DNA of 64,000 nt from Minisyncoccota bacterium (GTDB taxonomy: Bacteria > Patescibacteriota > Minisyncoccia > Phycocordibacterales > PALSA-1337): the NCBI GenBank assembly GCA_036517115.1, contig DATDYB010000023.1:2839-66838 (forward strand), given 5' to 3'. How positions within the stretch are numbered: position 1 is the stretch's first letter; each line of letters starts with the position of its first letter. This document shows, in pieces, positions 11,515 to 37,861 of this stretch. A program made the translations under genes and the position numbers. The notes under the pieces are model-generated. The model was not told the origin of the DNA and ran no database searches. It saw only the letters and a list, made by a program, of their open reading frames with translations.

Positions 11515-14500
11515 ATGCGATTTTTCTTTTCCGTATTGTTTGCAATACTGGCTCTATTTCCGTCTAATAATGTATTTGCAGCGGCGGAAACACTATTCCT
11601 AGTTGGCTTTGATGGAACGTTTCAAGATTTTTCAAAAAATGATTCGAGATACATCAATAATAATTTTTTCATTGATGATGATTTTCTTAAGGATAATGTA
11701 CTAGATGGTCGAAAGGAATATACTAAATTTGGAGAGGGTAGCTTGCGAGTGTATGGCTGGCAGGATGGAACTAAGGAGGGAAAGTTTCATGAAACAAAAA
11801 TCAGTTTTCTACCGAAAGAGGATATTGATGTGGGGACCAGCGAATTCACTATAGACTTTTGGGTCTACCCTTTTGTCGATATCACCACAGACAAGAATAC
11901 TGGCAAGTTTTTTGAACTTCTCAATACCAGAAAGAATACTTCCTCGCTGTACCCGAATTCTAATTTAACAATATGGCGAGACAAGGATGCAGGGCGGGGC
12001 AGCAACAAGCCTTACCTTTTATTTACTGAAGATAAATTCTCGGCAGACGGTACTGCCGTGGCGGAAGAGCTACTCAAGGCACAAGCAGGAGATGATGTGA
12101 TCCGAGGTCAATGGAATCATGTTGCGGTACAGAGAAAAAACACCGCGACGGATTCAAAGTTTACCGTTGCGGTGAATGGTAAGATTGGTCCTGCCACATC
12201 AAAGCCTTTGAGTTTCAAAATCCCTCCGATGAATCGGGCGATTTTCAGTAAGTTGAGCAATGTAGTGTACGGCTTCCTCGATGAGGTGCGCGTGGTAAAA
12301 GGCGAAGCCCTATGGGCAGGAGGAGAAGCCGGAAAAACATTCGATATAACCTCGATTACTTCGGCAATCACTCCCGCCATGAAAGGAAGAGCTAGACCAT
12401 TCACTCCCTCATCTAAAATCTTGCCCGAGGATGTGCCTCCTTCATTTGTCATACCATTTGATGACTCACTTGTTGCGAGTCAGGGAGGAACTGTGGCCCC
12501 GGTAGATCCAAAAGTATCTTCCCCGGCAATAGTTAAAGATGTAGACACTCAGGTGGGAAAGGGAAGCGCGTTCTTTGCGGGTGAGAAAAATGGACTGGTC
12601 TACACTGCCTCAGGAAATGAGGTGGATTTGGGTAATGGCAATTTCACCATAGACTTTTGGGTGTTACCTGAATTACTTTCATCCGGCACCGCCGGGGAAT
12701 CTCTTCAGCTGTTCTCTCTTAAAGATAGCTCGAATAAAACCTTTCTATTACAGAGGTATAACTTTACAGGGGATACTAAGACACTTCTGTTCGGACCTGT
12801 TATTGACGCATTTTCTAATCCGAAAAACGCACGTGGTGCAGATGTGAGTCCTACTGGCGTATCTCCATGGTGGCTTGATATTGAAGCGAGGCGCTGGAAT
12901 CATGTTGTAGTCCAAAAAGATGGACCGTATCTGCGCCTTATGATAAATGGTGTCGTAGGTGGTGCCGCGTATTCTGTCCCTTTCACTGGCAAAACTACAC
13001 TAACGATTGGTGGTGTGGCAGCAGCAAGTACCGTCGGAGGGAAAGTCTATCCGTTCAAGGGTTATATCGACCATTTCCGAATTACCAAAGCGGCTCTGTG
13101 GCCAGGTGTAACACGAGGAGACAAGATAGAATATCTAGCTCCGAAAGGAGGTGAACCTGTCATCATAGAGAGGCCAGTAGAGATTGACCCATATGCCAAC
13201 CGTAGTGAGGTACCCGGAAAAGAAGGCATTCCTACATTCCCGAATCTTTCTTCAACCGAAACATCAGAAGAGCGAGACCTTCCGGAAAGAGCAATTGCAC
13301 AAGAGCTGTTGATACAAAATCTGGACGGCTCTCGAGACTATACTAATTATTATGACGATAGAAGCGTCTTAGTAAAGAGCGTCTTTTGGGCAGAAAACAC
13401 CGGCGATAAAAAATTGAAGACGCTGGAGTACGATGCTTCGGGAGAATTATACAAAGAAACACATTTTGGACCAAAGGGCGCTATTGCCGACACGTATTTC
13501 TATTATTCCGCGGCAGATGGCGGTTCGTTGCACAAGGAAATCCTTCGTCGAGGAGACAAAGAGCTCTACACTCGGTTTACCCCACAGGGAAAAATTGCTT
13601 ATGCCCATGAAGTGAAGGGAGGAAAGTATGTCTATTCTAAACATATTAACTATGATCAAAAGGGAAAGGTGCAAGACGATCTCATCATATATGGGCCAGA
13701 TCAATTTGAGAAAAATGTGTATGTGGCGAGCGAACAAACTGGGCAGGTGAGGGAGATTAGAAATTATACAAAGACTCCAGTATCTGCAGATGGCGCTCCA
13801 TACGCATATACTGCAACCCTACTTGAAAACGAAAAAGTTCTTTCTAAAAAGACACTGTACGCGGACAGTAATTTTAACGTGCGAAAAATGGTGCTTTCAT
13901 CATTTGATGCGAGTGGAAAGCACCTGACTATCGAAAGAACGTTTGATTACATCAATAATCTGCAACACTATCTGGAATATCATACCAAGGGTGAAAAAAT
14001 CATCGGCAAGAAAGCATCTGAATACACTTGGAATATAAGCGACGGAGCGTACCGTTCTAAAACTACCTATGACTACAAAGGTCTTGCGGGGACATTTGAA
14101 GCTAAAAACAAAAAGATCGCGGGTAGTGGCCAGCTGCTTCATTATGTGAATGATGACGAAGCTGTCGATACCGATACCACATTTACTTATCAAACCATCG
14201 GCGGAGTAGTGAGCTGGAAAGACAAGACAACCAAGAAGTATGACAAAGATGGCAAGCTTATTAAAGTAACGGTAACGGTATTTAAGGAAAAACCCGAACC
14301 TACGGAAGATTCAATTACCGCCTATGATGGCGATTCAAACAAACTCTCTCTTACACGCTTTAATAACGGCGCGCGTATCTCTACAGAATTTTATGACAGT
14401 TTTGGAAATATTTTCTTTAAAAATAAGTACCAGAATGATGTTTCAGGTGGGTACACAGTCAAGTCATATTATGTTCTTGGTGCCAATGAGATTCCAGCGG

Positions 14501-17500
14501 GGGAAAATACCTATACTGCAGACGGCTCTCTCGCGAGTGATCTCAAGAAAGACGAACTGGCAATGAAAAACTACGGAGACGCACTTCTTGTTTCCTTAGG
14601 TGTCTCCAAGTCAGGACTTACTGCGTCAAACGAGAAAGCTAAACTTCTCGAAGTCTCGAAGAAAATCATAGGAGCATATAAAGAAACGCTCACGAATTCT
14701 TCTGTTGCAGGCTCGAAGCAAAAGAAATACCGAATATATGCAGATTTTGTAAACAAATTAACGGCAGGGGTATTCGCGATTGAGCATGCAGTCTGGGGTG
14801 CTGATCCGGGGAAGTCATTGGTCAACGATCATCAGCTTGAATATACAGCAAAGCCATGGACCGGCGTCGATGCCGCGAGCGGGCAAGAATTTTTTGGAAT
14901 CTACATTATGCCAGGGAGAGTCTCACCTGAGTCGCCTGATGCCGTGTTTATTGACATGGATATTAATAACCCAGCTGTTCTTACTACCGTTCTCGGAGCA
15001 TCTTCATATGACGCACTGAAATCTATTTCAAAAAAGAAGGAAAAGTGGGATTCACTCTCGGTGCTTCCTTCCACGGTATATGGTTCTACGGGCACAACAT
15101 TGTATAGATACAATCTGAGAGCAAACAATGGCACAGGAGCGTATCTCTCACTTAAAGAGCTCACTAAGGCTGATCCGACGATTAACCTTCTGCTAGATCG
15201 TATGCAGAAAGATTTAGGTGCTTCTCTTAGTCCGACACTTTCTGATGAGGAGGTGATTAAGATTTTTTATGAGTATTTCTTCGAGACAAATCTTTTTCAA
15301 TATATCCATGATCTTGGCGACGTGTCGCAAACAGTGAATGAAACATTAACCCGTGGAGGCGGAGACTGCGAGGATTTTGGAATATTTGCAGCTAGCTTAT
15401 TGCACAATCTATTTTTGAGGCTCGATAGGGGAGATGCAGCGGCGCGTGTGGGACTCGGACTTGTACATGTCGATGCTTTCGGAAAGATTTCATCCAAAAA
15501 CGCAGGAGCGGGACACGGTTCTCTTATGTTTAAGGCGAAAAATGGTAGCCACTACTATATTGAGGCGAGCTACCTCTTTACTGGCTCAGCGGGTAGCTAT
15601 GAGTTTAATCGCGACAAGATACTCACCGTCCTCGCTCCGGGAATAGGGGGCGCAGGGGCTAAAACAGGAAAAGTTGAGGTGGTACCTAACGGGTGGTATG
15701 TTGAGGCGCTTACCTTTAATCCGATTGAAGGAGTGACCGAAGCGTTTGCTGCATCTCAATTGTTTTCTGTGAACAAAATAGCACCTTCTCCAGTTGGCAA
15801 AAGTGCTGCAGAGAAAATATCGTCATTGCCGACCTATATCGAGCCATACAATAGAAAAGTGAATGCGCTTGCTGATTCTATCGTCAGATATATTCCACGA
15901 TTTAAAGACAAGACTCCCGAGTATCTAGCGGAATATGTGAATATGGTGATGAAAGAGTACAGCGTTTACCGTGCTGACGGCAGAGGTGATACTTGGGCAC
16001 GTGTCGACGTTACTCTCTCATCGCTTGACGGTATCCGAGGTGATTGTGAAGATCTCGCGTTTGTCGAAGCCAGTCTCTTGCAAAACATTCTCACGAAATA
16101 TTATATGAGCCGTGGGGATCTTTTGGTGAATGCGATGATCAGAGCGCAGGATCATGTAATGGTTATCGCTCAAAACAACTACGGCGGAGTTACGGGTAAA
16201 GCCCATTTGCTCGTAGGGTTTGTTTCCCCTCGTGCCGACAGTGACCTGACGACGGTGCGTCTCATGGATCCCCAAACGGGAGTGATGGAAGCATCGAGAC
16301 CATTTTCTATGTTGTTTACCGATCAGTATCTTTTCTTCGCTAACACGGACAAGATCACGACCATCACCTACTATGATTGGAGTACTCTGAACCTATCTGC
16401 TTCGGTTAAACAATCTGGGGAAGGGAAGAAAAAAACTGAGAAAGTAAAACCCGTGCCAGCAGAAACAGGCGAAGTATTTACAGACGCAGAGATTGATGCG
16501 GCAGCTGCATCAATCCAAAAAAAACAGAACGAAGGAGGGACATTTACCGCCAAGGAAAAGGCCATTTTCGATTATATGAAGGAAGTTTTAGAGTATGAAC
16601 AACGTCTGGATGATATTGGGGGAGAAATCGATGGTTTTGAAAGTATAAATGACAAAGCGGAAGTATTCATCAAAAAAAGTCTGGATACGATAGATGCCGA
16701 TGTTGCTAAAATTGCGGAAAAAGTGGAGCAAGGAAAGACGTCTGAGATAACCGCATCAGATGGCGCTGCGCTTGTCGGTGCCCAAAATAAAGCTCAGGCG
16801 GGTAAAAGTGTTCTACACGACTCAAGCTTGTTTGCCGGATTGGAAGGTGGAGACGGTTCGCAGCCGTTTCCACCAATCGATCTCAATGGGGATTATGTCA
16901 TCTTTGATCTGGAACCTTCTCAGCCGATCGATCTCATCCATCCAGCCCTTGACCCTAGCGCGTGGGGCAGTGACTTTACGCCAGCCGCTCCCGTCCCCCG
17001 ATCTGAAGTGGCACTTCCAGGCTCCGCTCCTGACGGGCCTCCCCCGGGCTTTCGTGTCGACACGAGAATATCTGATTCAAAGTTAACACCTGACCCGATC
17101 GTGAGCCCACAACAGTCATTTGTGAGCGCTGTGGCGAAAGTCTATTACGTATGGCAGATTCCACCAACGCCTATATTTGCTGGACCTGCAATTTCAAACA
17201 ATATGTTGTCGACGATAAATCCTCTTAATGGACAGATTACGTTCTCAACTCCTGTTATACCCACAGGTCTTCTTAACAATAGCTGTCCCAACGGAAACAC
17301 CGTTACCAAACTATGCAGTGATATTCCTGCATCCGCGCGGGTTACCGTCAAACCGGAAAACTCTTATTTTGTAGGCAGGGATACCTGTGCTTCAAGCGTG
17401 AATATTTGTTCGGATGATACTACGTTCAACACTGGTTGGCAGTGCAATCCTGGCTTCATTCCCGCGCGCGGCAAGTGTATAAAAATTGATATTGAGATAG

Positions 17501-19185
17501 AAAAACCTGACGTATGTCCCAATATTGGAGGTACGCAAGCAACCGTACCAGTCGGTAAGATAAAAGACGCGGCGGGGAATTGTGTAGAGCCCCCTGTAGA
17601 TGCGTGTGTAAATATTCCTGACATTCAAAGCTCTGTTCCATCGGGAATGGTACGAGATACCAGTGATCGTTGTGATATCTGTCCTAACATTCCCGAAGCA
17701 CAGATCGAAATTCCGACAGGTATGAGCAAGGATGCGGCTGGCAATTGTGCCTTTCCATCAGTGAACGCCACCGTTTCCCTCGGCTCTTGTGCGCCGGCCA
17801 CTAACCTCACTCCCGCGAACGTTTCAATCGCTCCCGACAAAAAAGCAAAATTGGTCATCCGTACCGCATCTAACGTAATTTCTGAGCTTAGCTCGAATGG
17901 CCAAGTACATCTTCCGCCAGGATCGTATGCGTGGATAGCTACGCCTGAATCAGGCTATGTATTTTCTCCAAGCGTTCCAACTTCAGGCACGCTTACCGCG
18001 AGAGACTGCGCGCCTCCGCCGCCATGCACCTCAAACTGTATCCCTATTATTTCTATCGGTGACACGAGAATAACGGAAGGTAATACCGGCAAGACTAATG
18101 CATCGTTCACGGTCAGTCTATCGAGAGCTGCGACTGCAGCAGTGACTGCGACGTTTACCACCTCCAATGGCACTGCCACGCTAGCGGACAAGGATTATGA
18201 AGCGACTACCGGCTCAGTTTTTCTTGCTATCGGCGAACTCACTAAGACTATTGTTGTCCCGGTTATTGGTGACACTACTGTTGAGCCTGACGAGTCCTTT
18301 ACGGTGACACTCTCGAACCCAAACATCGTCACACTCGGTCGTTCTGTAGCTACGGGTACGATCGTAAACGACGACAGTAGTGGTACCAATGACTCCGATG
18401 TGTGTCCTAACATCGATGGAATCCAAACCTCTATTCCATCGGGAATGACTAAGGATGTGAACGGAAACTGCGTCGGGGGTGGTACAGGAGGATGCCCTCC
18501 GAATTGTCCCGGAGGCGGAACCCCAAGCATCTTCATTGATAATAGTTCCGCTGCAGAAGGTTTTCCAGTGACGTTCATTGTCCGACTCGACAAGGTTTCA
18601 TCACTTCCGGTAACTTTCGCTTACAAAACTACTGATGGTACTGCGAAGGGTGGACCGTCGACAGATAGTAGTAGAGATTACACGTATGTCCCTGTAAGCA
18701 GTGCTACTCTTACTATCCCCGCCAATGTTCTTTCAACTACTGTATCGGTGCCTACTAATGGCGACGATATTTATGAAGTTGATCCGCCTGAAACGTTTAG
18801 CGTCACGTTACTCAGTATTGGAGGCGCCACAATCGGGGATGCAGTGGCGACAGGAACAATCGGCGATGACGATGTGCAATCAGTAAGCTGTAATGTGTAT
18901 GGAAGCGCTGATGCCACCGCCTTGCCGATTACCACCACTTTCATCAACCGCAACACCTATTGGAGAGCGACGGCCACTCCGGCATCTCGGGCAAAGACCG
19001 TATCGTGGACGGGAGGGCCAACCACGGCGGATATCGTTACTGGAGGTGCGCTTAATGCCACCGCCAAATCCTACACAACAGCGGGGAACAAGACCTCCAC
19101 CATCACCGTGAACGGAAAAATCTGGAATAGTCCTAACCCTTGTCCGATACTTCGAGCCATCGATCCGTCGTATAATGAATTTTAA
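11515..19185 (+). CDS. giant secreted multidomain surface protein (2556 aa): 2x LamG-like, YD-like repeats, 2x transglutaminase-like cores, Cys-repeats, 2x Calx-beta, PKD-like C-terminal domain
   Basis: ORF 11506-19185. The likely start is the ATG at 11515 (MRFFFSVLFAILALFPSNNVFA/AAE signal peptide). Domain motifs are given in the findings. TATAAT at 11501-11506 lies 8 nt before the ATG. Confidence 0.85.
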   Translation: MRFFFSVLFAILALFPSNNVFAAAETLFLVGFDGTFQDFSKNDSRYINNNFFIDDDFLKDNVLDGRKEYTKFGEGSLRVYGWQDGTKEGKFHETKISFLPKEDIDVGTSEFTIDFWVYPFVDITTDKNTGKFFELLNTRKNTSSLYPNSNLTIWRDKDAGRGSNKPYLLFTEDKFSADGTAVAEELLKAQAGDDVIRGQWNHVAVQRKNTATDSKFTVAVNGKIGPATSKPLSFKIPPMNRAIFSKLSNVVYGFLDEVRVVKGEALWAGGEAGKTFDITSITSAITPAMKGRARPFTPSSKILPEDVPPSFVIPFDDSLVASQGGTVAPVDPKVSSPAIVKDVDTQVGKGSAFFAGEKNGLVYTASGNEVDLGNGNFTIDFWVLPELLSSGTAGESLQLFSLKDSSNKTFLLQRYNFTGDTKTLLFGPVIDAFSNPKNARGADVSPTGVSPWWLDIEARRWNHVVVQKDGPYLRLMINGVVGGAAYSVPFTGKTTLTIGGVAAASTVGGKVYPFKGYIDHFRITKAALWPGVTRGDKIEYLAPKGGEPVIIERPVEIDPYANRSEVPGKEGIPTFPNLSSTETSEERDLPERAIAQELLIQNLDGSRDYTNYYDDRSVLVKSVFWAENTGDKKLKTLEYDASGELYKETHFGPKGAIADTYFYYSAADGGSLHKEILRRGDKELYTRFTPQGKIAYAHEVKGGKYVYSKHINYDQKGKVQDDLIIYGPDQFEKNVYVASEQTGQVREIRNYTKTPVSADGAPYAYTATLLENEKVLSKKTLYADSNFNVRKMVLSSFDASGKHLTIERTFDYINNLQHYLEYHTKGEKIIGKKASEYTWNISDGAYRSKTTYDYKGLAGTFEAKNKKIAGSGQLLHYVNDDEAVDTDTTFTYQTIGGVVSWKDKTTKKYDKDGKLIKVTVTVFKEKPEPTEDSITAYDGDSNKLSLTRFNNGARISTEFYDSFGNIFFKNKYQNDVSGGYTVKSYYVLGANEIPAGENTYTADGSLASDLKKDELAMKNYGDALLVSLGVSKSGLTASNEKAKLLEVSKKIIGAYKETLTNSSVAGSKQKKYRIYADFVNKLTAGVFAIEHAVWGADPGKSLVNDHQLEYTAKPWTGVDAASGQEFFGIYIMPGRVSPESPDAVFIDMDINNPAVLTTVLGASSYDALKSISKKKEKWDSLSVLPSTVYGSTGTTLYRYNLRANNGTGAYLSLKELTKADPTINLLLDRMQKDLGASLSPTLSDEEVIKIFYEYFFETNLFQYIHDLGDVSQTVNETLTRGGGDCEDFGIFAASLLHNLFLRLDRGDAAARVGLGLVHVDAFGKISSKNAGAGHGSLMFKAKNGSHYYIEASYLFTGSAGSYEFNRDKILTVLAPGIGGAGAKTGKVEVVPNGWYVEALTFNPIEGVTEAFAASQLFSVNKIAPSPVGKSAAEKISSLPTYIEPYNRKVNALADSIVRYIPRFKDKTPEYLAEYVNMVMKEYSVYRADGRGDTWARVDVTLSSLDGIRGDCEDLAFVEASLLQNILTKYYMSRGDLLVNAMIRAQDHVMVIAQNNYGGVTGKAHLLVGFVSPRADSDLTTVRLMDPQTGVMEASRPFSMLFTDQYLFFANTDKITTITYYDWSTLNLSASVKQSGEGKKKTEKVKPVPAETGEVFTDAEIDAAAASIQKKQNEGGTFTAKEKAIFDYMKEVLEYEQRLDDIGGEIDGFESINDKAEVFIKKSLDTIDADVAKIAEKVEQGKTSEITASDGAALVGAQNKAQAGKSVLHDSSLFAGLEGGDGSQPFPPIDLNGDYVIFDLEPSQPIDLIHPALDPSAWGSDFTPAAPVPRSEVALPGSAPDGPPPGFRVDTRISDSKLTPDPIVSPQQSFVSAVAKVYYVWQIPPTPIFAGPAISNNMLSTINPLNGQITFSTPVIPTGLLNNSCPNGNTVTKLCSDIPASARVTVKPENSYFVGRDTCASSVNICSDDTTFNTGWQCNPGFIPARGKCIKIDIEIEKPDVCPNIGGTQATVPVGKIKDAAGNCVEPPVDACVNIPDIQSSVPSGMVRDTSDRCDICPNIPEAQIEIPTGMSKDAAGNCAFPSVNATVSLGSCAPATNLTPANVSIAPDKKAKLVIRTASNVISELSSNGQVHLPPGSYAWIATPESGYVFSPSVPTSGTLTARDCAPPPPCTSNCIPIISIGDTRITEGNTGKTNASFTVSLSRAATAAVTATFTTSNGTATLADKDYEATTGSVFLAIGELTKTIVVPVIGDTTVEPDESFTVTLSNPNIVTLGRSVATGTIVNDDSSGTNDSDVCPNIDGIQTSIPSGMTKDVNGNCVGGGTGGCPPNCPGGGTPSIFIDNSSAAEGFPVTFIVRLDKVSSLPVTFAYKTTDGTAKGGPSTDSSRDYTYVPVSSATLTIPANVLSTTVSVPTNGDDIYEVDPPETFSVTLLSIGGATIGDAVATGTIGDDDVQSVSCNVYGSADATALPITTTFINRNTYWRATATPASRAKTVSWTGGPTTADIVTGGALNATAKSYTTAGNKTSTITVNGKIWNSPNPCPILRAIDPSYNEF
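19159..19182 (+). other. C-terminal tail IDPSYNEF-stop (shared tail motif, copy 1)
   Basis: The last 8 codons of the 2556-aa protein. Confidence 0.7.
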
Positions 19186-19199
19186 TTTCGCAAAATTAT

Positions 19200-19532
19200 A
19201 TGAACAAAGCAGCACCATATCTCTTCATACTCTTGGTAATCGGCCTAGTTTCCTATGTCATCGTCGATGAGCAACAAAAGAACACGGTGCAAGGCGAACG
19301 TGCACTCTCGGAATCCTCGATGCGCGGTATTGGTGAAACGCAGGGAGCGCTTGATGCTCTTGCGGATGGTGGGGCGACCAGGGTAGCAGACGATATTAAA
19401 AATATCGATGCGAAAAAAGCTGAAGCCGCGAACATAGATACGCAAGCCACCATTGACCGTCAGGAAAAAGCTGAGAGACTGAGCGAACAGGAGACAATGC
19501 CTGGGAGTGTCGGTGAGTTTAATCCACGATAA
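19200..19532 (+). CDS. small single-pass membrane protein (110 aa)
   Basis: MNKAAPYLFILLVIGLVSYVIV is a TM segment, followed by an acidic/Ala-rich tail. It starts 14 nt after the giant gene. Confidence 0.5.
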   Translation: MNKAAPYLFILLVIGLVSYVIVDEQQKNTVQGERALSESSMRGIGETQGALDALADGGATRVADDIKNIDAKKAEAANIDTQATIDRQEKAERLSEQETMPGSVGEFNPR

Positions 19533-19620: not shown

Positions 19621-22182
19621 ATGATATCCGAGCGATGTCGTATCAAAAGGATGAATCCTTTTATTATTATGAAATTACCCTCAAAATTTTTCGTAGTGGT
19701 TTTGGTCGCCTTATTGTTCTTTGTTGCTACCAACTCCCTCTACGCATTCACAGAACTTAATCCTATTACTCCTGCTAATCATGGCGGATCATCGCACTAT
19801 TTGATAACTGGCGAGGGTACGAATGCTGACTGTAATCAAAAAGGAGATGCGATAGCGAGAGATTTCTGTGTTATCACGGGAGCAACCTCGGTGCATACTC
19901 CAGCTGATATCGTATCTGGCGGAACATTTTATATTGAAGGAAGCTTGAATACGCGAGTCCGTGAGGGTATTTTAAGTAATGTCGACAGACCTTACACGGT
20001 ATACGCCACTTTTCAGGGAACATCTATCAACGTTGGGAAATATTTGTATGGAATAATTCCAAGTTCAGGTAATAACATCACTGGCCCTTATAAAATCGGG
20101 CCATTTGTGGCCCCGCTCACGGCTGGGAAGTATAAAGTATCGTTAGATTTTGTTACCCTCTCTCCAGGTACTCAATTTACTGAGTATCTTCGTGGATATC
20201 ATGAAGTAAACGTCGTCGCGCCAACATTTAATAATGATCCACTACGAGTAACAGCCCAAACATCACCAATGTGCGGGGGAATGATCAATCTTTCATGGGA
20301 CAAAGCTACTGCTTCAAATTCTAACAACGCCGTAGGGTATAGTGTGTATCGCTTTAGCAAAGATCCCTACGCCGGTGAGCCGTATGAATACTCGGTCATT
20401 AAAATTCGGAATGTAAACACAACCACCTATATCGACAGCGGCCTTCAGCCGAAGGCGCGCTACTGGTATTTCGTGTTTCCTGCTACCGCAGATGAGCTTG
20501 CGAAGGAGAGTGTTAATGCCGCTGCGACACTGCTTGCTCAGGGTCAGGCTCCCGCGCGGGGATACACTAACCCTAATGCGGTGTTTAGGAATCTCGGAAC
20601 ACCCACTCCTATTATCGATCCTTCAACTGCCCTCGCTTCAGCAGCGTGTCCGCCTGTAGTAGAAGCCCCGGACCTTACTGCTATTACTCCGACCATCGAT
20701 GTGGGTCGAAGTACCCTGGCTGTCGACAGTGCGACTAACAGCTATGTATTTGGATCAACCATCGCTCTTCGCGGCGTTATTCATAATGATGCTGTAGCCG
20801 ATATTACCCAGTCGTTCAATAATCTTTATCAAATCAGTACTGACAATTTTGCTCCACAAGGTGACGCTGTCGCCCTTTCTCCGACTCGGAATAGGGTAGG
20901 CTTTACCAACAAGGGGGCGCATGCACTTCTCAACATATCAAAAAATACCAGCAAAGAAGTCAGTCTCTTAAGTTTTGTTCCCACAAAAACCGGCCTGTAC
21001 TTTATCCGTCTCTGTGCGGACTTGCCGGACTACGACTATGGATCTGTCGCTGAATCCAATGAAAATAACAACTGCTCGGCGAGCCTACAGATCTTTATCG
21101 TAAGCCCCGATCTCACCGTTCTCTCTGCACCGGTAGTGAGTGGTAGCGTTCTTGCTACAGGAGGCTTTGACACCACGAAGCCTCTAACCCTTAGAGGTAC
21201 CATCACCAACCAAAGCCCGGTGTCTGTTACGCGTACTTTTCCTAATCTCTACCAGTATTCTATTGACCGGGTCCACTATGAAGATTTTACCGCTACATCG
21301 TTGCCTCAGCTTGCGGCGTTTGCGACCGGAAACTTGCAGCCTTACACGTGGAATCCCACGGTTGGTGACACAAAAACCTATTATATTCGCCTTTGTGCCG
21401 ACATGTCGGGACTTTCCAAGGGTCTCGTGGGAGCTGTTGTCGACGAATCCAATGAAAACAACAACTGCTCGAGCGATGCGGCAGTTAGTTTAGGGGTGCC
21501 ACCGCCAGTGTTGTCGACGGCGCTTGAACTTAAAGTCAGAAAAGAGGGCACAGCTCTTGTCGACGCGCGATATTCGCTTACCATTCCTGAAAACAGTAAA
21601 GCGGTGCTCTCGTGGGAATCGAGCAATACTCTGGGAGGGAATTCTTGCGATGCCCTTGGTTCATGGACCGGTAAAAAGACAAATGCTTCGACGGGAGATA
21701 GTGTCGGTCCCTTAGCCAAGGGTTCCTACAAGTATCAAGTGCGTTGTGGTAGCGCCATTCCAGGGGATATTGCAATGGTAACTAGCAATGAAGTAACGGT
21801 AGAAGTAACGGCAGGGGAGACGATCTGTATCGTAAATTGTGACGGACAGACTTTTGTTCCGCCAGGTACGCCAGGTCGCCCTGTCACACCTCCAGGCACA
21901 CCAGTGACACCTCCACCACCGTTTTCGCCATCAATCTATAGCTGTGCCCCTTCAAAAACCGCAGTGAAAGTTGGAGAATCTGTGACGTGGACAGTAATAG
22001 GAGGAGGAACCACGTTCATATGGACTGGATCCAATATCACCGGCAAAACGGGAAACCCGATATCGGTGGCATACCCTGGGCTAAGTACCAAAACTGCCGA
22101 GGTTCTGGTGGATAATAGGTGGAGGGTGGTGTGTAGTCCGAATGTTACCGTTACGATCGATCCGACTTTTAAAGAAATTTAA
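19621..22182 (+). CDS. secreted surface protein (about 840-853 aa): FN3-like, 2x CARDB-like, Ig-like, PKD-like C-terminal domain
   Basis: The start is ambiguous (ATG at 19621, 19651 or 19669). The signal peptide is KLPSKFFVVVLVALLFFVATNSLYA/FTE. The CARDB signature YFIRLCADLPDYDYGSVAESNENNNC occurs, with a second copy YYIRLCADMSG...VDESNENNNC. Confidence 0.8.
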   Translation: MISERCRIKRMNPFIIMKLPSKFFVVVLVALLFFVATNSLYAFTELNPITPANHGGSSHYLITGEGTNADCNQKGDAIARDFCVITGATSVHTPADIVSGGTFYIEGSLNTRVREGILSNVDRPYTVYATFQGTSINVGKYLYGIIPSSGNNITGPYKIGPFVAPLTAGKYKVSLDFVTLSPGTQFTEYLRGYHEVNVVAPTFNNDPLRVTAQTSPMCGGMINLSWDKATASNSNNAVGYSVYRFSKDPYAGEPYEYSVIKIRNVNTTTYIDSGLQPKARYWYFVFPATADELAKESVNAAATLLAQGQAPARGYTNPNAVFRNLGTPTPIIDPSTALASAACPPVVEAPDLTAITPTIDVGRSTLAVDSATNSYVFGSTIALRGVIHNDAVADITQSFNNLYQISTDNFAPQGDAVALSPTRNRVGFTNKGAHALLNISKNTSKEVSLLSFVPTKTGLYFIRLCADLPDYDYGSVAESNENNNCSASLQIFIVSPDLTVLSAPVVSGSVLATGGFDTTKPLTLRGTITNQSPVSVTRTFPNLYQYSIDRVHYEDFTATSLPQLAAFATGNLQPYTWNPTVGDTKTYYIRLCADMSGLSKGLVGAVVDESNENNNCSSDAAVSLGVPPPVLSTALELKVRKEGTALVDARYSLTIPENSKAVLSWESSNTLGGNSCDALGSWTGKKTNASTGDSVGPLAKGSYKYQVRCGSAIPGDIAMVTSNEVTVEVTAGETICIVNCDGQTFVPPGTPGRPVTPPGTPVTPPPPFSPSIYSCAPSKTAVKVGESVTWTVIGGGTTFIWTGSNITGKTGNPISVAYPGLSTKTAEVLVDNRWRVVCSPNVTVTIDPTFKEI
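22156..22179 (+). other. C-terminal tail IDPTFKEI-stop (shared tail motif, copy 2)
   Basis: The last 8 codons of the 853-aa protein. Confidence 0.7.
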
Positions 22183-22773: not shown

Positions 22774-25700
22774 ATGATTTATCATAGAGAAACAATAACT
22801 GGTTCAATGGGGAAAAAGGTTAGAATCGAGCGTCTTTGTGTCTACATAGTTGCAGTTTTATCGCTGTTCTCCTTTTTCTTTGCGTCCAATGCGGTCGAAG
22901 CTTATGTGCCCGGCGATACTATTACCCACGGCACCTCCCATTCATACAACAACTCGACCTACAGTATATATGGGTCATATTATGTGGGAGTCGCTATACA
23001 CAAGAACGGGTCGGTTTGCGACCAACAATATGGAAACGTATACGGGTCGAACGCGAACCCGCCGGGTCCCGCTTCGATTTCCGCGTCATGTTCTCAAGTC
23101 GCAGGTCCCGTCGGTACCACGTACACGTTTAAAAATTTTCTGCTCTTCAACGGGAGCTGGTCGTCAACAGGCGAGACCACATATACCGTTGTAGCCCCGA
23201 CCTGTACCACTTTCACCTACTCGGGTTGGGGGGCGTGTCAGTCAGACAACACACAGACAAGAACAGTAACCGGGAGCTCTCCTGCAGGTTGCACCGGCGG
23301 GTCTCCGGTAACCTCACAATCCTGTACATTTTCTGCGCCGGCATGCAACTACACCTATTCAAATTGGGGAGCCTGCCAACCCAATGGTACGCAGACACGA
23401 ACAGTAAATTCTACATCCCCGTCGGGATGTGCAGGGACACCCGCAACATCCCAGTCTTGTACGTATGTTGCGGCGGTCGCATCCGCAGGCCTTTCTCTCG
23501 CCACGCCCTCCTCAATGCCTGTGCCATACAACTCGGCTGCGACACTCGCTGTTTCGTCTCAAAACGCATCCAACTGTAATTTGTCCGGCGGAGGACAGAC
23601 ATGGAGTAATGTCACAGGAAATGTCGGTGCAGGAAACGTGGGGGTGGGTAACCTCACCACGGACACAGCATTTTCTGTCAACTGTACCCCTAATGCTAAT
23701 ACTACGGGTACACCATCGAATAGTCTTACGGTTACTGTCGCTGCGCAGGTGATTAATTACACTATTTCTTCCGCCGCAGGTACTGGAGGCACGCGGTCGT
23801 GTACCGGTTGTGGAACTGTATCCTCAGGGTCTCAAGTCAGCGTGACTGCCTCGCCTAACACCAACTATCAATTTTCAAGCTGGAGTTGGTCGGGTACGAA
23901 TAACCCTTGTTCCTCTGCTGGGAGCACCTGTACATGGAATGCGGCGCAAAGCGGCACACTTACCGCAAACTTTACGGCAGTGCCTTCTTTTGGCACCCCC
24001 TCATTTTCATCGGTATGTAACAACCAGGTTACTCCCAATGACTGCTCCACTCCGATCATCGACGGATCAACGGTAACCTACTCAGGTTCGGTCACCAACT
24101 CTGGAGGGGCGGCGGGAACATGGAATGGAACCGTTGAGGTAAGGGATGGTAACAGCGGCACTGTCTACACCAACTGGATTTCGGGAGTCTCTGCCACAGT
24201 TGCGGCTAACACCACAGCAACGTTAAGTGGTACACATAGCAACGATGCTACATTCGGCGCTGGGCCTTGGCAATTTAGATTTTGTCAGAGCGGTGGTAGT
24301 TGTTCTCCATGGAGCGGTAACTATTATTTCACCAAGGGATACAGCATCAGTACCACCGCATCTCCGAGTGCGGGTGGGTCAATAGCCTGTTCGGTAGGGG
24401 GAACTACGGTGCCCTGCAGCAACACTTTTCAATCAGGGACAGAGGTGGCACTCACCGCTTCTACCGCGGCTAACTACCAGTTTTCAAACTGGTCAGGTGA
24501 TTGTTCAGGATCGTCTTGTTTGCTTACCATGAACGGGAATAGGAGTGTTACTGCAAATTTCAGCAGTTTTAACTACAGGATCGATCCTCCTGCTGCGCAG
24601 ACTATCACCCAAGGAAAGACGATCTATGTTTATGTACCTACAACATTAACAGGGGGAAACACCGAGGGAGTTACTCTCACACTCTCAAATCTTCAAAATG
24701 GTGTTAGTTATACTGTGGATCCTGTCGGCGCTCTTAACCCGTCGGTGACCAGAGTTTTTGCAATTACGGCCGCTGGAAATGCCACCGTCGAGACAAGAAC
24801 TGTTACGATAACCGGCAGTCCTCTCGGTAGAACCACGACATTCAGTCTTAGTGTGTTAGCGCCGACGGTGAGTGCGACACTTACCGCGAGAAATGCTGCC
24901 GGTACAGCGGTCACTGCCGCGCAAACAGGCGAGACCCTGAACTTCACAACCTCGGTTTTGGGAACGGCTGGAGGGACCGCCACGTACTCAGGACACACCT
25001 GTGGTTCAGGAGCCAATTTATTTAATGTAAGCGACGGTTCATTTTCGTGCACCTATACCAGCGCTAGCAACAAGACTGCAAGCATAACAGTCACGAAACA
25101 AGGGGTATCTGCTACTGCTACCAAAGTTATTTCCGTGACGGCACCACCAAACACACTCATTATTCAGAGTGTTGTTATTGATGGAGCAGTAATAACACCG
25201 ACAACCGGAGCAAGTATGGAGATGTACGACGGTACGTATAACGGAATATATCCAACGGAAAAAACGTTCACGAGTACCACCGGCACCATCACCAACACCA
25301 TTCAAGCTCCCTCAAAATTGAACGGAAACTCCTTTCTTTCTTGGTCAGGGTGTGACAGCACTCGATCGAGACAGCGATGTGACGTGACAGTCGCTAATGG
25401 CGCGACTAAGACTATCAACGCGCAGTATGTCACCGCCTCCTATTATCGTCCGAACTTCACGGTAAGCGGTGTAGTAGTGAATGGTGATAAATACAAGGGA
25501 ACTTCGACATATGTAGACTATACCATCAACGACCATAACGTGACGATTGTTGGTACGATCACCAACTCAGGTTCGACTGAGGCTCCTGATCAAGCGGCAT
25601 ATGTATCATTTGAATATAGCACCAATGGTGGAGCAAGTTATACTGCCATGGGCGCAGCGTATCCAGCGATAAAGGAGCAAGGTGGCTCAACGATTCCTGC

Positions 25701-28700
25701 CTCATTTCCTAGGGGCGCACAGCAAAGAGTGTACGCTGTATTAGATGTTCCTCCGGGTGCCTATACTCTACGTATCTGTGTGGATTCGGCCAACAGTATT
25801 CCTGAAACTAACGACAGCGACAATTGCTCGGGAGGGACGGCGATCGTTGTCTCCACTCCCTCGGCTCCACCGACCGTTCAGTCTTGTTTTGCCTCATTCG
25901 TCAACACTAATACCGCTGAATCGAATCGTGACGTTCGAACAAGTGGAAACGTCGGGATATCAGGAAATTGTTCCACTGATTACTTCCAAGGGATGACGGT
26001 CACGGGTACAGCTTATGCATCTGATCTAGGGGCTGGAGTTCCCGTACTCGATCTTTATGGCTGGTTTGGATGGAGAGATTTTGGTACGGATCCAACTAAC
26101 GGCGGCAACGGCGTATGGAGAGATACGGGGCCAGTGAGTACTAGTGCACAGTATTCTGTTCGAGAGGCAAATGGAGCATGTCAAAACAGCAGTGGCTGGC
26201 CAAGTGGGGATGGTATCGGATTCGGTCCGATTAACGTGTCTGCGGGATACAGCAACTCTTTTACGTACGCTTCGTACCTCGGATGTCTTCAAAATGATCC
26301 TTGGCAAAGAACACATGTTAATTTCGGGACCTACGGTGTTCCTTGGGGGATCTATAATTACGGAGTAACTAACACTTTCAGTGGTACATACTATTGTTAT
26401 GTGCATCTGAACTCTGTATACGATGTTCCAAGTGATACTTTTAAAACACCAGTTTTAATGCGGGGAGATCCGAAAAGCTTTAACCTCTCAACCCGCGCTG
26501 AAAGCTGCTACAGTATTCCTCGGGGTGCGCTTGATGACGATTATTATCAGGAATCATGCGGAAATAGTAAGTATACTGATTCTGTTACATTTAGCTGTCC
26601 GGGATATACCGCAACTCCTGTGCAGAGCACATCTAATCCTTTACCACTTCCGAATACTCCTATCCTCAAACGACATACCTTGAATGTTAAAAGTACTTTC
26701 GGTACCGAATCAAGTCAGGGTGTGTTCATTACTCAGGTGGGCAGTGCGTACGCATTGAAGACAGATGGAACTCTTACTTCCTCTGTGGTAGTGCCGATGG
26801 AAGGAGGGAATTTTGGAGGGACTACCGACTACTCTAAGACCACTGAGCGTAACTTTAGAGTTACTCTCAAGGCACCCTTCACACACCCTTCAAGAGGAGG
26901 TTCGTTTATCGCGTGGAGTGGATGTGATTCACTTGCCACATCGGGCGACGCCCCTGCAGGAGTTAGTAATAATCAATGTACGATCGATTTTAAATATTCT
27001 AATTCAGGCGGTATTTCGAGAACCATAACAGCAAACTATTTTGTTGCAGTTCCTGCTCAGCCGATCATAAGTGTAGGACCAGGGTCGTGCGGGGCGAATG
27101 TAAATATTTCATGGAGCGCAGCCGCAGGGGCAACAACCTACAAATTGCACCGTTCAACGAATGGGTTGGGTGGTCCATTTAATCAACTTCCGATTGGTAT
27201 CCCTACTACGGTAACAAGTGTGTACCCAGATTCAAAGCTTAATGCCACCACTCCGCTTTCACCAAATACGGAGTATTGGTACCAGTTGGAGGCGGTGAAT
27301 ACGGGAGGTAGCTCGTTCTCGCCGATCACTTCAGGGCTGTCTTCCAAGAACTGTTTCGACTTCGGCCTCACCAACGGAGGCAACAAGACGACAGTAGCGG
27401 GAACAAATCCTGTAGACAACACACTCACCGCTTCACTTACACCTGAAGCAGTTGGCGCAACAACACAAGTCGTTAACCTCACCATGGGGTCACTACCAGC
27501 TGGAGTAACTCACGTATTCCTTAAGGGCGGTGTGGCTGTAACTTCGATCACTCCGAACGACACCATTACCGTCAGGCTCAATACGACGCTCGGCACCACG
27601 CTTCCGAATACCTACGCCATCACCATTACAGGTACCAGTCCAAATCCAAAAATCCCAGGTCAGAATCTTACAAGACAGACGACATATAACCTCATTGTTA
27701 CCAACCCAAGTAACATGCAGCTTTCTGTTACTAAGTCAGGTACGGGAACCGGTACGGTAAAATCGAGCGAAGCAACACCGAAAATTAATTGTGGTAGCAC
27801 CTGCTCGGCTCTCTACACATATAGCGACCAGGTGACACTTATACCTACCCCTGATGCAGGCTCAGCATTTAAACAATGGACAGGTGCGTGCAGTTGGACG
27901 GGGAGTTGCATAGTCAACATGAACGGAAACAAAGCGGTTGACGCAGAGTTTACTAAGCAGATCGCGTCTGTTGATCTTAAGGCGGAAACATCTGACGGAC
28001 CGATAATTGTCGACTATGATTTCAATCCTAAACTTACCTGGTCGTCGACGTTTGTAAACGCAAACAGCTGTAACATCACGATAGATCGGCAATCCAACAA
28101 CTTTCCAAAAAATGGCCAGCCGGCGTCGATGACAGCGCCCGGTATTTCGACCGAAGCATTGAGGCAAGATGTCACCTTTACCGTAACTTGTACGAAAAAT
28201 ACTGGCGCAGGAGGGGGAACGGGGACTACGGTCACTGACAGTGTGGTGGTTAAGGTAAAAGTAAGAACGGGTGATGTTACACCAGTTACTCGAGCTAATT
28301 CCTGCGGAGTGATTGACGTCACTTACCAGTCGGCTGGTAATGCTACGACATACACACTCCATCGGAACCCCGACGCGAGCGGTCTTAATCAATGGGGAAG
28401 GATTGCTGGCGGAGGAACTGAAGCTACCGGTGTAGCGTTCGGTGCACTTCCGGCCGTACATACCGGTCTCACTGCCGGAACCTTGTATCAGTACCAGCTT
28501 CAGGCGTTTAATAAAGTCAGTGATGCATCGTCGCCAATCAGGAGCGCGACTGCATCCGCAAACTGTTTTGATTACACTCTTTCAAACTCAGGCAATGTTG
28601 GCGTCGGTGTTACTGGAGCAGCCTCAGCTTCAGTTACAAAAACATTAGTCACTGCACCAACTCAAGCGGTAACATTGGCAGTGTCGAGTATTAAAAAACC

Positions 28701-31700
28701 AGATAACAGTATAGTGACCGGCTCAGGAAGTAGCCTCAGTACATCCGGTCTCACTATTGCGATCAGAGACAACAATCCTTCTAATCCTACCAGTACCAGC
28801 AACATTGATGTAACAACCAACAATGCGACCCTTGGGACGTATGTTGTTACCGTCGTTGGCTCGCCGCTCGGTAAGTCAACCTCTTTCAACGTAACAGTTT
28901 CTATTGGACAGCCAACCGTAACGCTAAACACTACGACTGCAGCTTGCGGAGCAAATATTAATCTTTCGTACGGAGGAGGGTCCGGCGCGAATTCATTTAC
29001 GTTGTATCGACAAATTGATAGCAATACCTCACCGTATCCGCAACGCGCTACTGCACCCACTCTCGCCGGTTTACCTACAATTGATAAAGCCTCTGACAGT
29101 TTGATCGCCGGAAGAACATACTGGTATCAGCTTAAGGCATCAAATGGAAGCTTCGATGCCTATTCGCCACGGGTGAGTGCGGTTGCAAGCGTGCCGTGTC
29201 CGACAATTGATTTGAAAATTAACGACAAAGACTCTGATACGGTTGCTGCTGGATCGAACGCCGCATTAAGCTGGCAATCGTTTAACGCGCCAACAGGAAG
29301 CACCTGTTTAGCTTCTTCTGTTCCAATAAGTACATTCAAGGGGGCGCGGGTGTTGACCTCGTCTTCACCGGAAAGTGTTGTGGTGGATGTCAATACGACG
29401 TATAAAATTGACTGTTTGGCACCAGGCGATTATCCTTTTTCTGACACGGCTGTTGTGACGGCCCCTGTTACTGTCACTTGTAGCGCTTTGCCGACTTCGG
29501 GTACCGCGGGAGTTACCGAAATTACGTGGACTGCCGTTCCAAAAGGTGGCACAGGAGCATACACCTATTCATGGTCAGGCACCGATAGCCTCACAGGAAC
29601 TGCAATTTCAGTAAAGAAAACATATGGGGCAACTAGTGCCGGCTCCAAAACAGCGAGTGTGAGTGTCAACGGATTGGCGGCGGCAAACTGCAGTACACCC
29701 GTGAATATTATCGCTCCTGTGGCAACAGCCGATATTAAAGCGGACGCTTCGGATGGACCGATTACAGTAAATTACGGAGCGACGCCGACTATTTCTTGGA
29801 GCAGCGAAGAAACCGCGACATGTTCAATTACGGCGAGTCCGGGTGTTACTGGGTTTCCTAAGAGCGGCACTTCATCCGCCGGAGTAACCTCAGGAGCACT
29901 TACGGCTGACACCACATTCAATATCTTATGTACTCCTGCTAATGGAGCAACTAATAATCCAACTAACAGTGTTGTTGTAAAAGTTCGACCGCAGGCGCCT
30001 GACCTTACCGCTCTACCAGCAGCCTGTGGAGGAAACATCAACCTTACGTATACGGAAAGCAACAATACGACAGGATACAAACTACACCGGAATCCATACT
30101 CAGGGAATGTAGGAACGTGGGGACAGATTGAAGGAGGGAATACAGGAATTTCAATCGCAACTCTACGAAACAACAGGGCTATCGATGTAAACCTTGCTCT
30201 CGGCGCCTCGTATCAGTATCAACTTGAAGCGGTCAATACGAATGGCAGCGCTAACTCTGCCATTAGATCGACAAACGCTTCGGAAAAATGTTTCGACTAC
30301 TCTCTTTCAAACGGAGGCAATATTTCGGTAACGGCCGGACAGTCGGTAACTAATCAGGTGACGAGGACACTTGCTCCTGGAGTGCCGGTGAGTGCTTCGC
30401 AAGATGTGACACTTTCAGTCGGATCATTGCCTAATGGCATGAATGCACCCGATGTTACCAATCCATCGTTTACAGCAAATCCTTTCAAGCCTACGAACAC
30501 TAGTACACTGACGCTCAATACGACGCTCGGTAAAACATGTCTACCGCCGCTAGTATCCTGTACTTATCTCGTTACCGTTACTGGGGTATCTGCAGGAATC
30601 ACTAACAAAACAACGACATTTAATCTTACTGTCAATAATCCTTCGTATCTGCTCACGCTTAATCGTTCGGGTAATGGGTCAGTATCCTCAAGTCCTGTTG
30701 GCGTCACCTGTAACACAGGATGTGCCACAACAAACGCTTCGTATCTTTACAATACCTCGGTGGTACTTACCGCTACTCCTGATTCTGGATGGGTCGTAGA
30801 CACAACCAACTGGACAGGGTGCGACTCGGTTACCAGTAATCAAGGGGGGCAAACCTTCTGTACCGTTAAAGTGACGGCGGCTAAGACTGTCGCGGTTCTT
30901 TTCACACAAGTTTCGGCAAACGTCAACCTCAAGGCCAGTGCTTCCGACGGTCCGATTACGCTCGCGTACGGCAGCGGAGCAAATCTTACCTGGACATCAA
31001 ACCATATAGTGGATAATACTTGCGGAATTACCGCAATTCCTTCGGCTACTGGTTTTCCTAAATCTTCATTGCCTCTTTCCCATTCAGGTACGAGTTATAC
31101 AACCGGTAATCTTACTGTCGATACTACATTTAGGATAACCTGTACTAAAATTACAGGAGCGGGAGGAACAGACACTGACACTGTGCTCGTAAAAGTTGGA
31201 CCTGAACCCGTCAGCTTCAACGCCGCAAAAGGCTCATGCGGAAGTACCATCGACCTTACGTCGTATAGCGGCGGAGCCGGAGCAACCGGCAATGCTGCCT
31301 ACACACTCTATCGACAGCTCGGAGACAATCCACCGTATCCATTTGTTGAAAGCAAAGCAGCACTTACTGGTGGAGGAGGGCTCCGTCCAGTAGACTCGGT
31401 CGGACTCACGAGTGGCTCCACCTACTTCTACCAGGTGATGTCAACTAAAGTTCACCTTGATACCACGAGTTCATACAGCTATTCTGCTAAAAAATCAGCG
31501 GTTGCATCGGAAAAATGTTTTGACTACTCTCTCAGTAATAACGGCAATGTCACAATTGCGGTAGGTGGTAGCAGTGCAACAGCGGTTACCAAGACGCTTG
31601 TTGCGGGTGCAACAGCGCCGGTAACACTTTCGGTGACGAGCATCACTGCTCCAGGAGGAACAGTGACAACCGGTTCGGGAGTTACGCTTGCGGGTTCGGG

Positions 31701-37859: not shown

Positions 37860-37861
37860 TA

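Follow-up and report, generated by a model that had tools for sequence, protein, structure and literature searches.

A gene on the plus strand of contig DATDYB010000023.1 (assembly GCA_036517115.1, a Minisyncoccota bacterium) encodes a 2556-amino-acid (aa) protein, analysed here within a stretch of 64,000 nucleotides (the window). The protein opens with two LamG/ConA-like domains, a long array of β-hairpins and two tandem domains (TG1 and TG2) whose nearest structural relative is the cysteine protease LapG, and it continues into a C-terminal third of variable modules that ends in a short tail shared with neighbouring giant proteins. The features of the gene are the following:

11515-19185 (+), complete gene of the 2556-aa protein: ATG at 11515, stop codon at 19183-19185, uninterrupted single frame
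11515-11583 (+), predicted Sec-type signal peptide, aa 1-23, MRFFFSVLFAILALFPSNNVFA followed by AAE, read directly from the sequence
11593-12324 (+), LamG/ConA-like domain 1, aa ~27-270 (Laminin_G_3 and homology to domain 2)
12442-13107 (+), LamG/ConA-like domain 2, aa ~310-531 (Laminin_G_3, 41.4 bits, E = 2e-10, aa 368-528)
13300-14514 (+), β-hairpin array, aa 596-1000 (31 strands in the AlphaFold2 model, E7-12 to E402-411)
14560-14796 (+), long helical hairpin or stalk, aa 1016-1094 (model helices H427-438, H451-472 and H479-505)
14848-15723 (+), TG1, LapG/BTLCP-like, with its N-terminal α/β lobe, aa 1112-1403 (structure, family profile)
15367-15369, 15514-15516 and 15562-15564 (+), TG1 triad C1285, H1334 and E1350
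15811-16404 (+), TG2, second transglutaminase-like domain, aa ~1433-1630 (homology to TG1, model)
16045-16047, 16204-16206 and 16267-16269 (+), TG2 triad C1511, H1564 and D1585
16432-17214 (+), variable linker, acidic-helical and then Pro-rich, aa ~1640-1900 (composition, model)
17284-17478 (+), family-conserved Cys-rich module, aa 1924-1988 (alignment with relatives)
17515-17748 (+), three tandem CPNI repeats of 23 aa with two Cys, aa 2001-2078 (regular expression and alignment)
18040-18384 (+), Calx-beta domain 1, aa ~2176-2290, ending ..GTIVNDD (PF03160, best stretch aa 2192-2286)
18403-18471 (+), fourth CPNI repeat, aa 2297-2319, between the Calx-beta domains (regular expression and alignment)
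18517-18873 (+), Calx-beta domain 2, aa ~2335-2453, ending ..GTIGDDD (second Pfam stretch)
18877-19158 (+), C-terminal β-rich domain, possibly Ig-like, aa 2455-2548 (weak similarity to a neighbour)
19159-19182 (+), C-terminal tail IDPSYNEF before the stop codon, consensus P-x-F/Y-x-E-F/I-COOH (same end in neighbours and relatives)

The exact product is encoded on six independently assembled contigs (ENA and Logan assemblies), each with the same neighbours: NusA upstream, and downstream a 110-aa gene followed by a giant gene containing CARDB. No tandem repeats are found in the gene DNA and its direct repeats do not exceed 51 nt in length or 85% in identity; repeat-driven misassembly is therefore unlikely. 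Together, the single open reading frame (ORF), the paucity of repeats and the six contigs indicate that the ORF is real and complete, as claimed by an initial annotation made from the letters of the DNA, and not broken by assembly errors in repeats. All 17 peptide motifs quoted in that annotation lie where it had placed them. The N-terminus reads as a Sec signal peptide, in which a basic stretch precedes a hydrophobic core and VFA-A resembles a cleavage site; because it contains no Cys, it is not of the lipoprotein type.

A conserved head with tandem LapG-like domains

Among the modules, only LamG and Calx-beta are recognised by hidden Markov models (HMMs) in the 2556-aa protein, and aa 560-1700 was therefore searched exhaustively (phmmer). 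Against 1.84 billion cluster representatives this region yields 21 hits, ~7 of which contain a colinear core of ~1050 aa and 5 more its second half. Among 185,579 species genomes scanned, six true loci are found, all in metagenome-assembled genomes (MAGs) of Patescibacteria labelled Taylorbacteria, 'Patescibacteria group' or Saccharibacteria. The core is rare and restricted to Patescibacteria. The closest relatives of the bacterium are labelled Candidatus Taylorbacteria. P0001, a 99%-identical fragment, and the best ortholog, P0002 (46% identity), are both colinear over aa 14 to ~1790. Public annotation sees just a 'LamG domain-containing protein', P0002 being named 'LamG domain-containing protein, partial [Candidatus Taylorbacteria]'. 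Across relatives, which share 24-54% identity, the LamG domains (one or two copies), the hairpin array, the helical hairpin, the TG1-TG2 pair, the Cys-rich module and the tail are kept, and a variable linker and variable immunoglobulin-like (Ig-like) modules also recur.

The Pfam family Laminin_G_3 (PF13385) matches the whole protein in two stretches with 51.7 bits (cut-off 27.6). Domain 1 by itself scores 24.7 bits (aa 104-232), slightly below the cut-off, and aligns with domain 2 at 29% identity (E = 7e-10), so both LamG/ConA-like domains of the initial annotation stand. On an ENA contig of 6.7 kb, the very end of a protein of 1953 aa (P0025, aa 1857-1912) is 96% identical over 56 aa to aa 180-235 of the 2556-aa protein, in LamG domain 1; the remainder of P0025 is unrelated, and it was set aside as a likely chimeric assembly.

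The array that follows is modelled as 31 consecutive β strands. The AlphaFold2 model of the core (aa 590-1650, 1061 residues, alignment of 11 sequences) has a mean predicted local distance difference test score (pLDDT) of 79.8 and a predicted template modelling score (pTM) of 0.62. In a Foldseek comparison with the PDB, the top 27 matches of the array are Rhs effectors, teneurins, BC components of Tc toxins and mosquito SGS1, with E values down to 1.6e-11, and single-layer OspA sheets rank below them. RHS/YD shells (Rhs effectors of type VI secretion systems, 8uxt and 7q97; Tc toxin BC, 4igl and 4o9x; teneurins, 6fb3) are thus the structural comparators, with which the array has in common a long antiparallel run of hairpins rich in Tyr, Asp and Gly (YD..G..; E ~1e-11). 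However, it does not superpose globally on the Rhs, teneurin and Tc shells (template modelling score, TM, 0.05-0.13; root mean square deviation, rmsd, ~30 Å), and its ~31 strands fall short of a full cocoon. The likeness is thus one of local hairpin architecture and does not support a closed shell.

These matches would fit an Rhs-type polymorphic toxin, in which the array forms a shell carrying a transglutaminase-like cargo, such as a deamidase, for delivery to the host. Such a toxin is very improbable here. Besides the lack of support for a closed cocoon, the RHS_repeat HMM (PF05593) matches neither the 2556-aa protein (E up to 10) nor any of the 11 family members (E up to 1), and the family profile retrieves no RHS, teneurin or Tc chain from the PDB (E up to 10). 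The core motif of RHS proteins (the aspartyl autoprotease motif P....DPxGL) is absent throughout the 2556-aa protein, and a single-sequence PDB search with the hairpin region gives no match. Moreover, the would-be cargo shows conservation and not polymorphism, and what comes after the array is a set of conserved domains and ~900 aa of stalk instead of a C-terminal toxin. The earlier statement that this region recalls YD/RHS-type repeats does justice to the modelled shape, with its hairpins and local three-dimensional likeness to YD shells; membership of the RHS family is not supported.

Beyond the helical hairpin lie TG1 and TG2, which are homologous to each other (hhalign probability 97.3%, E = 1.7e-11; BLAST of the core, E = 7e-6) and have a similar layout of secondary structure in the model. 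The AlphaFold2 model of aa 1010-1637 (13 sequences, pLDDT 85.0, pTM 0.79) appears to adopt a papain/transglutaminase-like fold. LapG chains take the first six places among its PDB matches (E 4e-4 to 3e-3, probability 1.00, TM 0.56-0.58 on the target), followed by 3kd4, a transglutaminase-like putative protease, and then by papain-fold phytochelatin synthase. At the sequence level, the family profile matches two LapG chains at the GGDC(E/D)D nucleophile motif, 4u65_E (E = 0.018) and 4fgo_A (E = 0.21); with the single sequence the LapG match is not significant (E = 1.2), and it becomes near-significant solely with the family profile. The only Pfam families that recognise the cores are DUF553 (PF04473) and Transglut_core (PF01841), over just ~35 residues around the Cys. 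Among family members, DUF553 matches 5 of 11 (E up to 1), Transglut_core 4 of 11 and Peptidase_C93 1 of 11 (E = 0.067), and DUF553 exceeds its cut-off in two relatives (P0049, 21.6 bits; L005, 20.9 bits). The two transglutaminase-like cores of the initial annotation are upheld by this combination of weak sequence evidence, structure and mutual homology.

In the models of both cores a helix begins with the Cys, and the two strands that come next carry the His and then the acid, so the predicted positions agree with the order Cys-His-acid. In TG1, C1285, H1334 and E1350 are invariant in 13 of 13 relatives, save for one Asp in place of Glu, and the Asp at Cys+2 is invariant in the same 13. The TG2 triad is intact in the 2556-aa protein and in 5 relatives; its Cys and/or His are lost in 6 others (P0049, P0050, P0051, P0054, P0055, P0057), and P0053 keeps both but has Asn for Asp. 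This suggests that TG1 is the constrained catalytic copy and TG2 a duplicate that is often a pseudo-enzyme. The degeneration of TG2 in about half of the relatives shows that at least this copy tolerates inactivation, and would suit a purely structural or binding protein whose TG-like domains are pseudo-enzymes serving as interaction modules. The invariance of the TG1 Cys, His, acid and Asp(+2) among relatives at 24-54% identity argues instead for selection on catalysis, and a wholly non-enzymatic protein is quite unlikely.

Both cores contain a G-D-C-E-D motif, which corresponds to the nucleophile and the flanking acids of the Ca site of LapG-type enzymes. In DvhG, a member of the LapG family, the D and E flanking the nucleophile form the Ca site, and the D316A/E318A and C317A variants are inactive (PMC13090378); in LapG, D139 at Cys+2 binds Ca (PMC4866520). 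The LapG/DvhG family (BTLCP, Pfam Peptidase_C93; PDB 4fgo, 4fgp, 4fgq and 4u65) therefore shares with the tandem domains the best structural match, the sole near-significant PDB sequence match, the G-D-C-E-D motif and a Cys at a helix N-terminus. LapG is moreover extracytoplasmic, as the 2556-aa protein is predicted to be. LapG itself works in the diderm periplasm as a free protein of ~200 aa under the control of LapD and c-di-GMP, and its substrates are adhesins of type I secretion systems (T1SS), which it cuts at [T/A/P]AAG. In contrast to that stand-alone protease and its partners, LapD/DvhD and a T1SS adhesin, the domain studied here is present as two copies inside a 2556-aa protein of the Candidate Phyla Radiation (CPR), has Glu for Asp in TG1 and comes without an AAG site.

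A true transglutaminase has the fold and the Cys-His-acid triad in common with the cores, and the weak Transglut_core and DUF553 matches point the same way. By forming isopeptide bonds it would lock the protein covalently to the host envelope or to the cell's own wall, for which there is a precedent in Actinobacteria, where a transglutaminase was recently proposed to attach a surface protein covalently (EsrD, PMC13622651). However, the top 50 PDB matches of the modelled segment aa 1010-1637 include no transglutaminase chain, and the nearest structures and the D-C-E-D motif belong to the protease branch (LapG/BTLCP). The closest relative is therefore a Ca-dependent protease and not a cross-linking transglutaminase, which makes covalent locking unlikely. 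The label "transglutaminase-like" thus applies to fold and triad, but the nearest relatives are LapG-type Ca-dependent cysteine proteases. From its residues and motif, TG1 is apparently an active and probably Ca-gated cysteine protease.

The nucleophile motif is also seen outside the family. R(G/K)GG(D/N)C(D/E/K)D occurs with 30-54% local identity on archaeal MAG contigs (L009, L011, L012, L013, L017, L018, L021) from Thaumarchaeota/Nitrososphaeria, Micrarchaeota and Iainarchaeum, presumably in DUF553-type transglutaminase-like domains. Three further proteins (P0063, P0064 and P0065, of 6710, 4380 and 2169 aa) have a common core 'D.W.SV.DT(L/I)..G.GDCED(F/L)(A/S)', present twice each in P0063 and P0064, and are otherwise dissimilar to the family. 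Giant proteins outside the family, whose origin is unknown, thus also have TG-like cores of that subtype.

A shuffled stalk and a shared tail

The C-terminal third begins with the linker, which contains 19 Pro and 12 Ser per 100 aa at aa 1801-1900 and has a pLDDT below 50 at the end of the model. It matches no family, and its length and sequence vary among relatives. The Cys-rich module that follows has the consensus C..KP.NS.FVG..C..C.DD..(Y/F)..GW.CN.GF..C and is also found in P0002, P0048, P0050, P0051 and P0052. It had been called EGF-like: a conserved Cys-rich module exists, but no EGF HMM of Pfam or NCBIfam matches aa 1880-2180 at E up to 10, and the sole resemblance is the six-Cys pattern with ..GW.CN.GF..C. 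The CPNI repeats are confirmed in four copies by regular expression and alignment, the second and the fourth being tied together by a DNA repeat family (D1).

The two Calx-beta domains are well supported. Pfam Calx-beta (PF03160) reaches 64.8 bits over the full length of the protein and 76.1 bits when the segment aa 2160-2450, with both domains, is scanned alone (cut-off 27), in two stretches. The domains end in acidic ..NDD and ..DDD, and the copies align with each other at E = 1e-12. As members of this family they are putative Ca-binding modules. The last domain had been called PKD-like, a label that is dropped here: no PKD HMM of Pfam or NCBIfam matches aa 2430-2556 even at E up to 10. It weakly resembles the C-terminal end of the 853-aa neighbour (30% over 73 aa, E = 0.003). 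Across the searches, weak matches to UVB_sens_prot, Rotamase_2, ISG65-75, MIAC, ThiQ, CagS (2g3v) and MORN_2 (all E at least 0.02) were rejected as noise.

Calx-beta domains and CPNI repeats are found in the 2556-aa protein only. P0002, L003, L004 and L005 have neither and carry InlB-B-like or other modules in their place. The six-part combination of the initial annotation is not conserved, no ortholog having Calx-beta. The combination is therefore one product of the shuffling of stalk modules, and the head is the conserved unit. The module list itself is largely right (LamG, Calx-beta, TG cores, CPNI and tail), with the exception of the EGF and PKD labels and of RHS membership.

The tail closes the protein after the last strand of the Ig-like domain, and no transmembrane segment lies beyond it. 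That it is shared, as the initial annotation had stated, is evident from both downstream giant neighbours: the three adjacent giant proteins end in ..IDPSYNEF, ..IDPTFKEI and ..VNPTFKEI (19159-19182, 22156-22179 and 34780-34803 in the window). The same ending closes relatives and other large proteins at other Patescibacteria loci (L003 4398-10463; L004 6944-13774; L005 7583-13834 and 16310-19000; L001 6686-9616), with several large secreted proteins per genome, and further variants are PSGSFEEF, PAGSFIEF and NPEFQEF. No Pfam or NCBIfam model matches it. The tail may be a C-terminal sorting or anchoring signal specific to Patescibacteria.

A possible role at the cell surface

A secreted multi-module protein that joins binding and catalytic modules, as first proposed, fits the signal peptide, the LamG and Calx-beta domains and the Cys-His-acid triad, and an "adhesin that modifies its target" is a plausible inference from these features. 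On balance, we lean towards a Sec-exported, adhesin-like surface protein that is held at its C-terminus and whose enzymatic head acts on a surface molecule of a host or partner. The conserved head would comprise one or two LamG domains, the single-sheet YD-like hairpin array, the helical hairpin and the two tandem LapG/BTLCP-like domains. The C-terminal third would form a shuffled stalk of flexible linker, Cys-rich modules, CPNI repeats, two Calx-beta domains and an Ig-like domain. The lineage-specific tail at its end probably keeps the protein attached to the cell. The stalk would project the head toward the host cell and the LamG domains would bind a surface ligand. TG1, aided or regulated by TG2, may then act as a calcium-activated cysteine protease or transamidase on a surface protein or peptide of the host or partner.

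Several points weigh against such a role. The structural match to LapG is modest (TM 0.58, rmsd 8-10 Å, 16-18% identity), and no TG-family HMM reaches its threshold in the 2556-aa protein (DUF553, 14.0-14.5 bits against 20.5). The acid of TG1 is Glu where LapG and transglutaminases have Asp, and the LapG cleavage motif [T/A/P]AAG is nowhere in the 2556-aa protein. The ligands of LamG domains are diverse and include glycans but not exclusively. The anchoring role of a tail without a Pfam or NCBIfam model is purely inferred, and surface location, Ca dependence and catalysis are predictions.

The superfamily of each module is already known, as are giant adhesin-like proteins of CPR bacteria as a class. 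What appears to be undescribed in Pfam, NCBIfam and the literature searched is the Patescibacteria-restricted core, in which a YD-like sheet is fused to tandem LapG-like domains, the embedding of a LapG-like protease in the surface protein itself, and the recurrent tail; a literature search found no description of the protein family or of the tail. Host recognition, attachment and exploitation by CPR/Patescibacteria are largely obscure, giant surface proteins and type IV pili being the main suspects. The 2556-aa protein is a concrete and testable candidate, with a conserved head in which the apparently active TG1 is related to the protease controlling the release of adhesins in biofilm bacteria. 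It also draws attention to a domain block of this lineage that lacks annotation, and to a recurrent tail that is potentially a new sorting signal.

Gene neighbourhood

Upstream, on the other strand, lie the genes of NusA and an inorganic pyrophosphatase. The downstream features are the following:

19200-19532 (+), 110-aa single-pass membrane protein, adjoining the 2556-aa gene and called as a gene in 3 of the 3 contigs shown
19621-22182 (+), 853-aa secreted protein with CARDB and the same tail
22774-34806 (+), 4010-aa secreted protein with four InlB-B-like repeats, fn3, CARDB and the same tail
36114-39073 and small ORFs to ~41868, type IV pilus cluster with a PilB-like T2SSE ATPase (402 bits) and a PilC-like T2SSF protein

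Attachment of CPR bacteria to their hosts is proposed to depend on giant surface proteins together with type IV pili (PMC8080830, PMC10633639), and the genes around the 2556-aa protein thereby favour the proposed surface role. The nearest adhesin comparators of the 2556-aa protein are giant repetitive adhesins with Calx-beta/Ig-like stalks (LapA-type RTX adhesins) and the giant surface proteins of CPR bacteria (Vampirococcus, PMC8080830). With these comparators it has in common a secreted chain encoded over multiple kilobases, Calx-beta domains, ligand-binding modules at one end and type IV pilus genes nearby. It differs in having no RTX repeats and no T1SS signal, and instead a predicted Sec signal peptide, a novel tail and its own protease-like domains.

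Another possibility is that the TG domains act in cis, cutting their own stalk or the two tail-bearing neighbours and thus detaching the cell or shedding the head, as LapG does on LapA. In favour of such self-release, LapG is the closest solved structure, with the Ca-site and nucleophile motif in common (PMC13090378), and three giant surface proteins are encoded side by side; the Calx-beta domains and a weak LapA-domain match (E = 4e-4, below cut-off) are also what is expected of LapA-type adhesins. However, [T/A/P]AAG is missing from the 853-aa protein as it is from the 2556-aa protein, and the two sites in the 4010-aa neighbour are at about chance level by a rough estimate that was not computed. 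Neither a LapD-like regulator nor T1SS genes are present among the neighbours scanned with Pfam (NusA, the giant surface proteins and the type IV pilus genes), and the orthologs do without Calx-beta. Release in cis is improbable, and action on a host or partner molecule remains the preferred reading.

The 110-aa membrane protein is 35% identical (E = 6e-19) to the product of a 109-aa gene directly upstream of P0002 (L001 9661-9990), and both end in ..(E/R)FNP(R). It is a candidate for a conserved partner of these giants. More tentatively, and with doubt prevailing, the ~1050-aa core could be a module that modifies the host surface and the tail a new sorting or anchoring signal, which, next to the 110-aa membrane protein, would jointly form an unrecognised display and attack system of episymbiosis. 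If true, wall-bearing, ultra-small Patescibacteria would possess a previously unrecognised system for surface display and attack. At the equivalent upstream position, L003, L004 and L005 have a different membrane protein of 87-89 aa. In the pilus cluster of the window, the PilC-like gene is followed by three ORFs of 159-170 aa and then by one of 434 aa.

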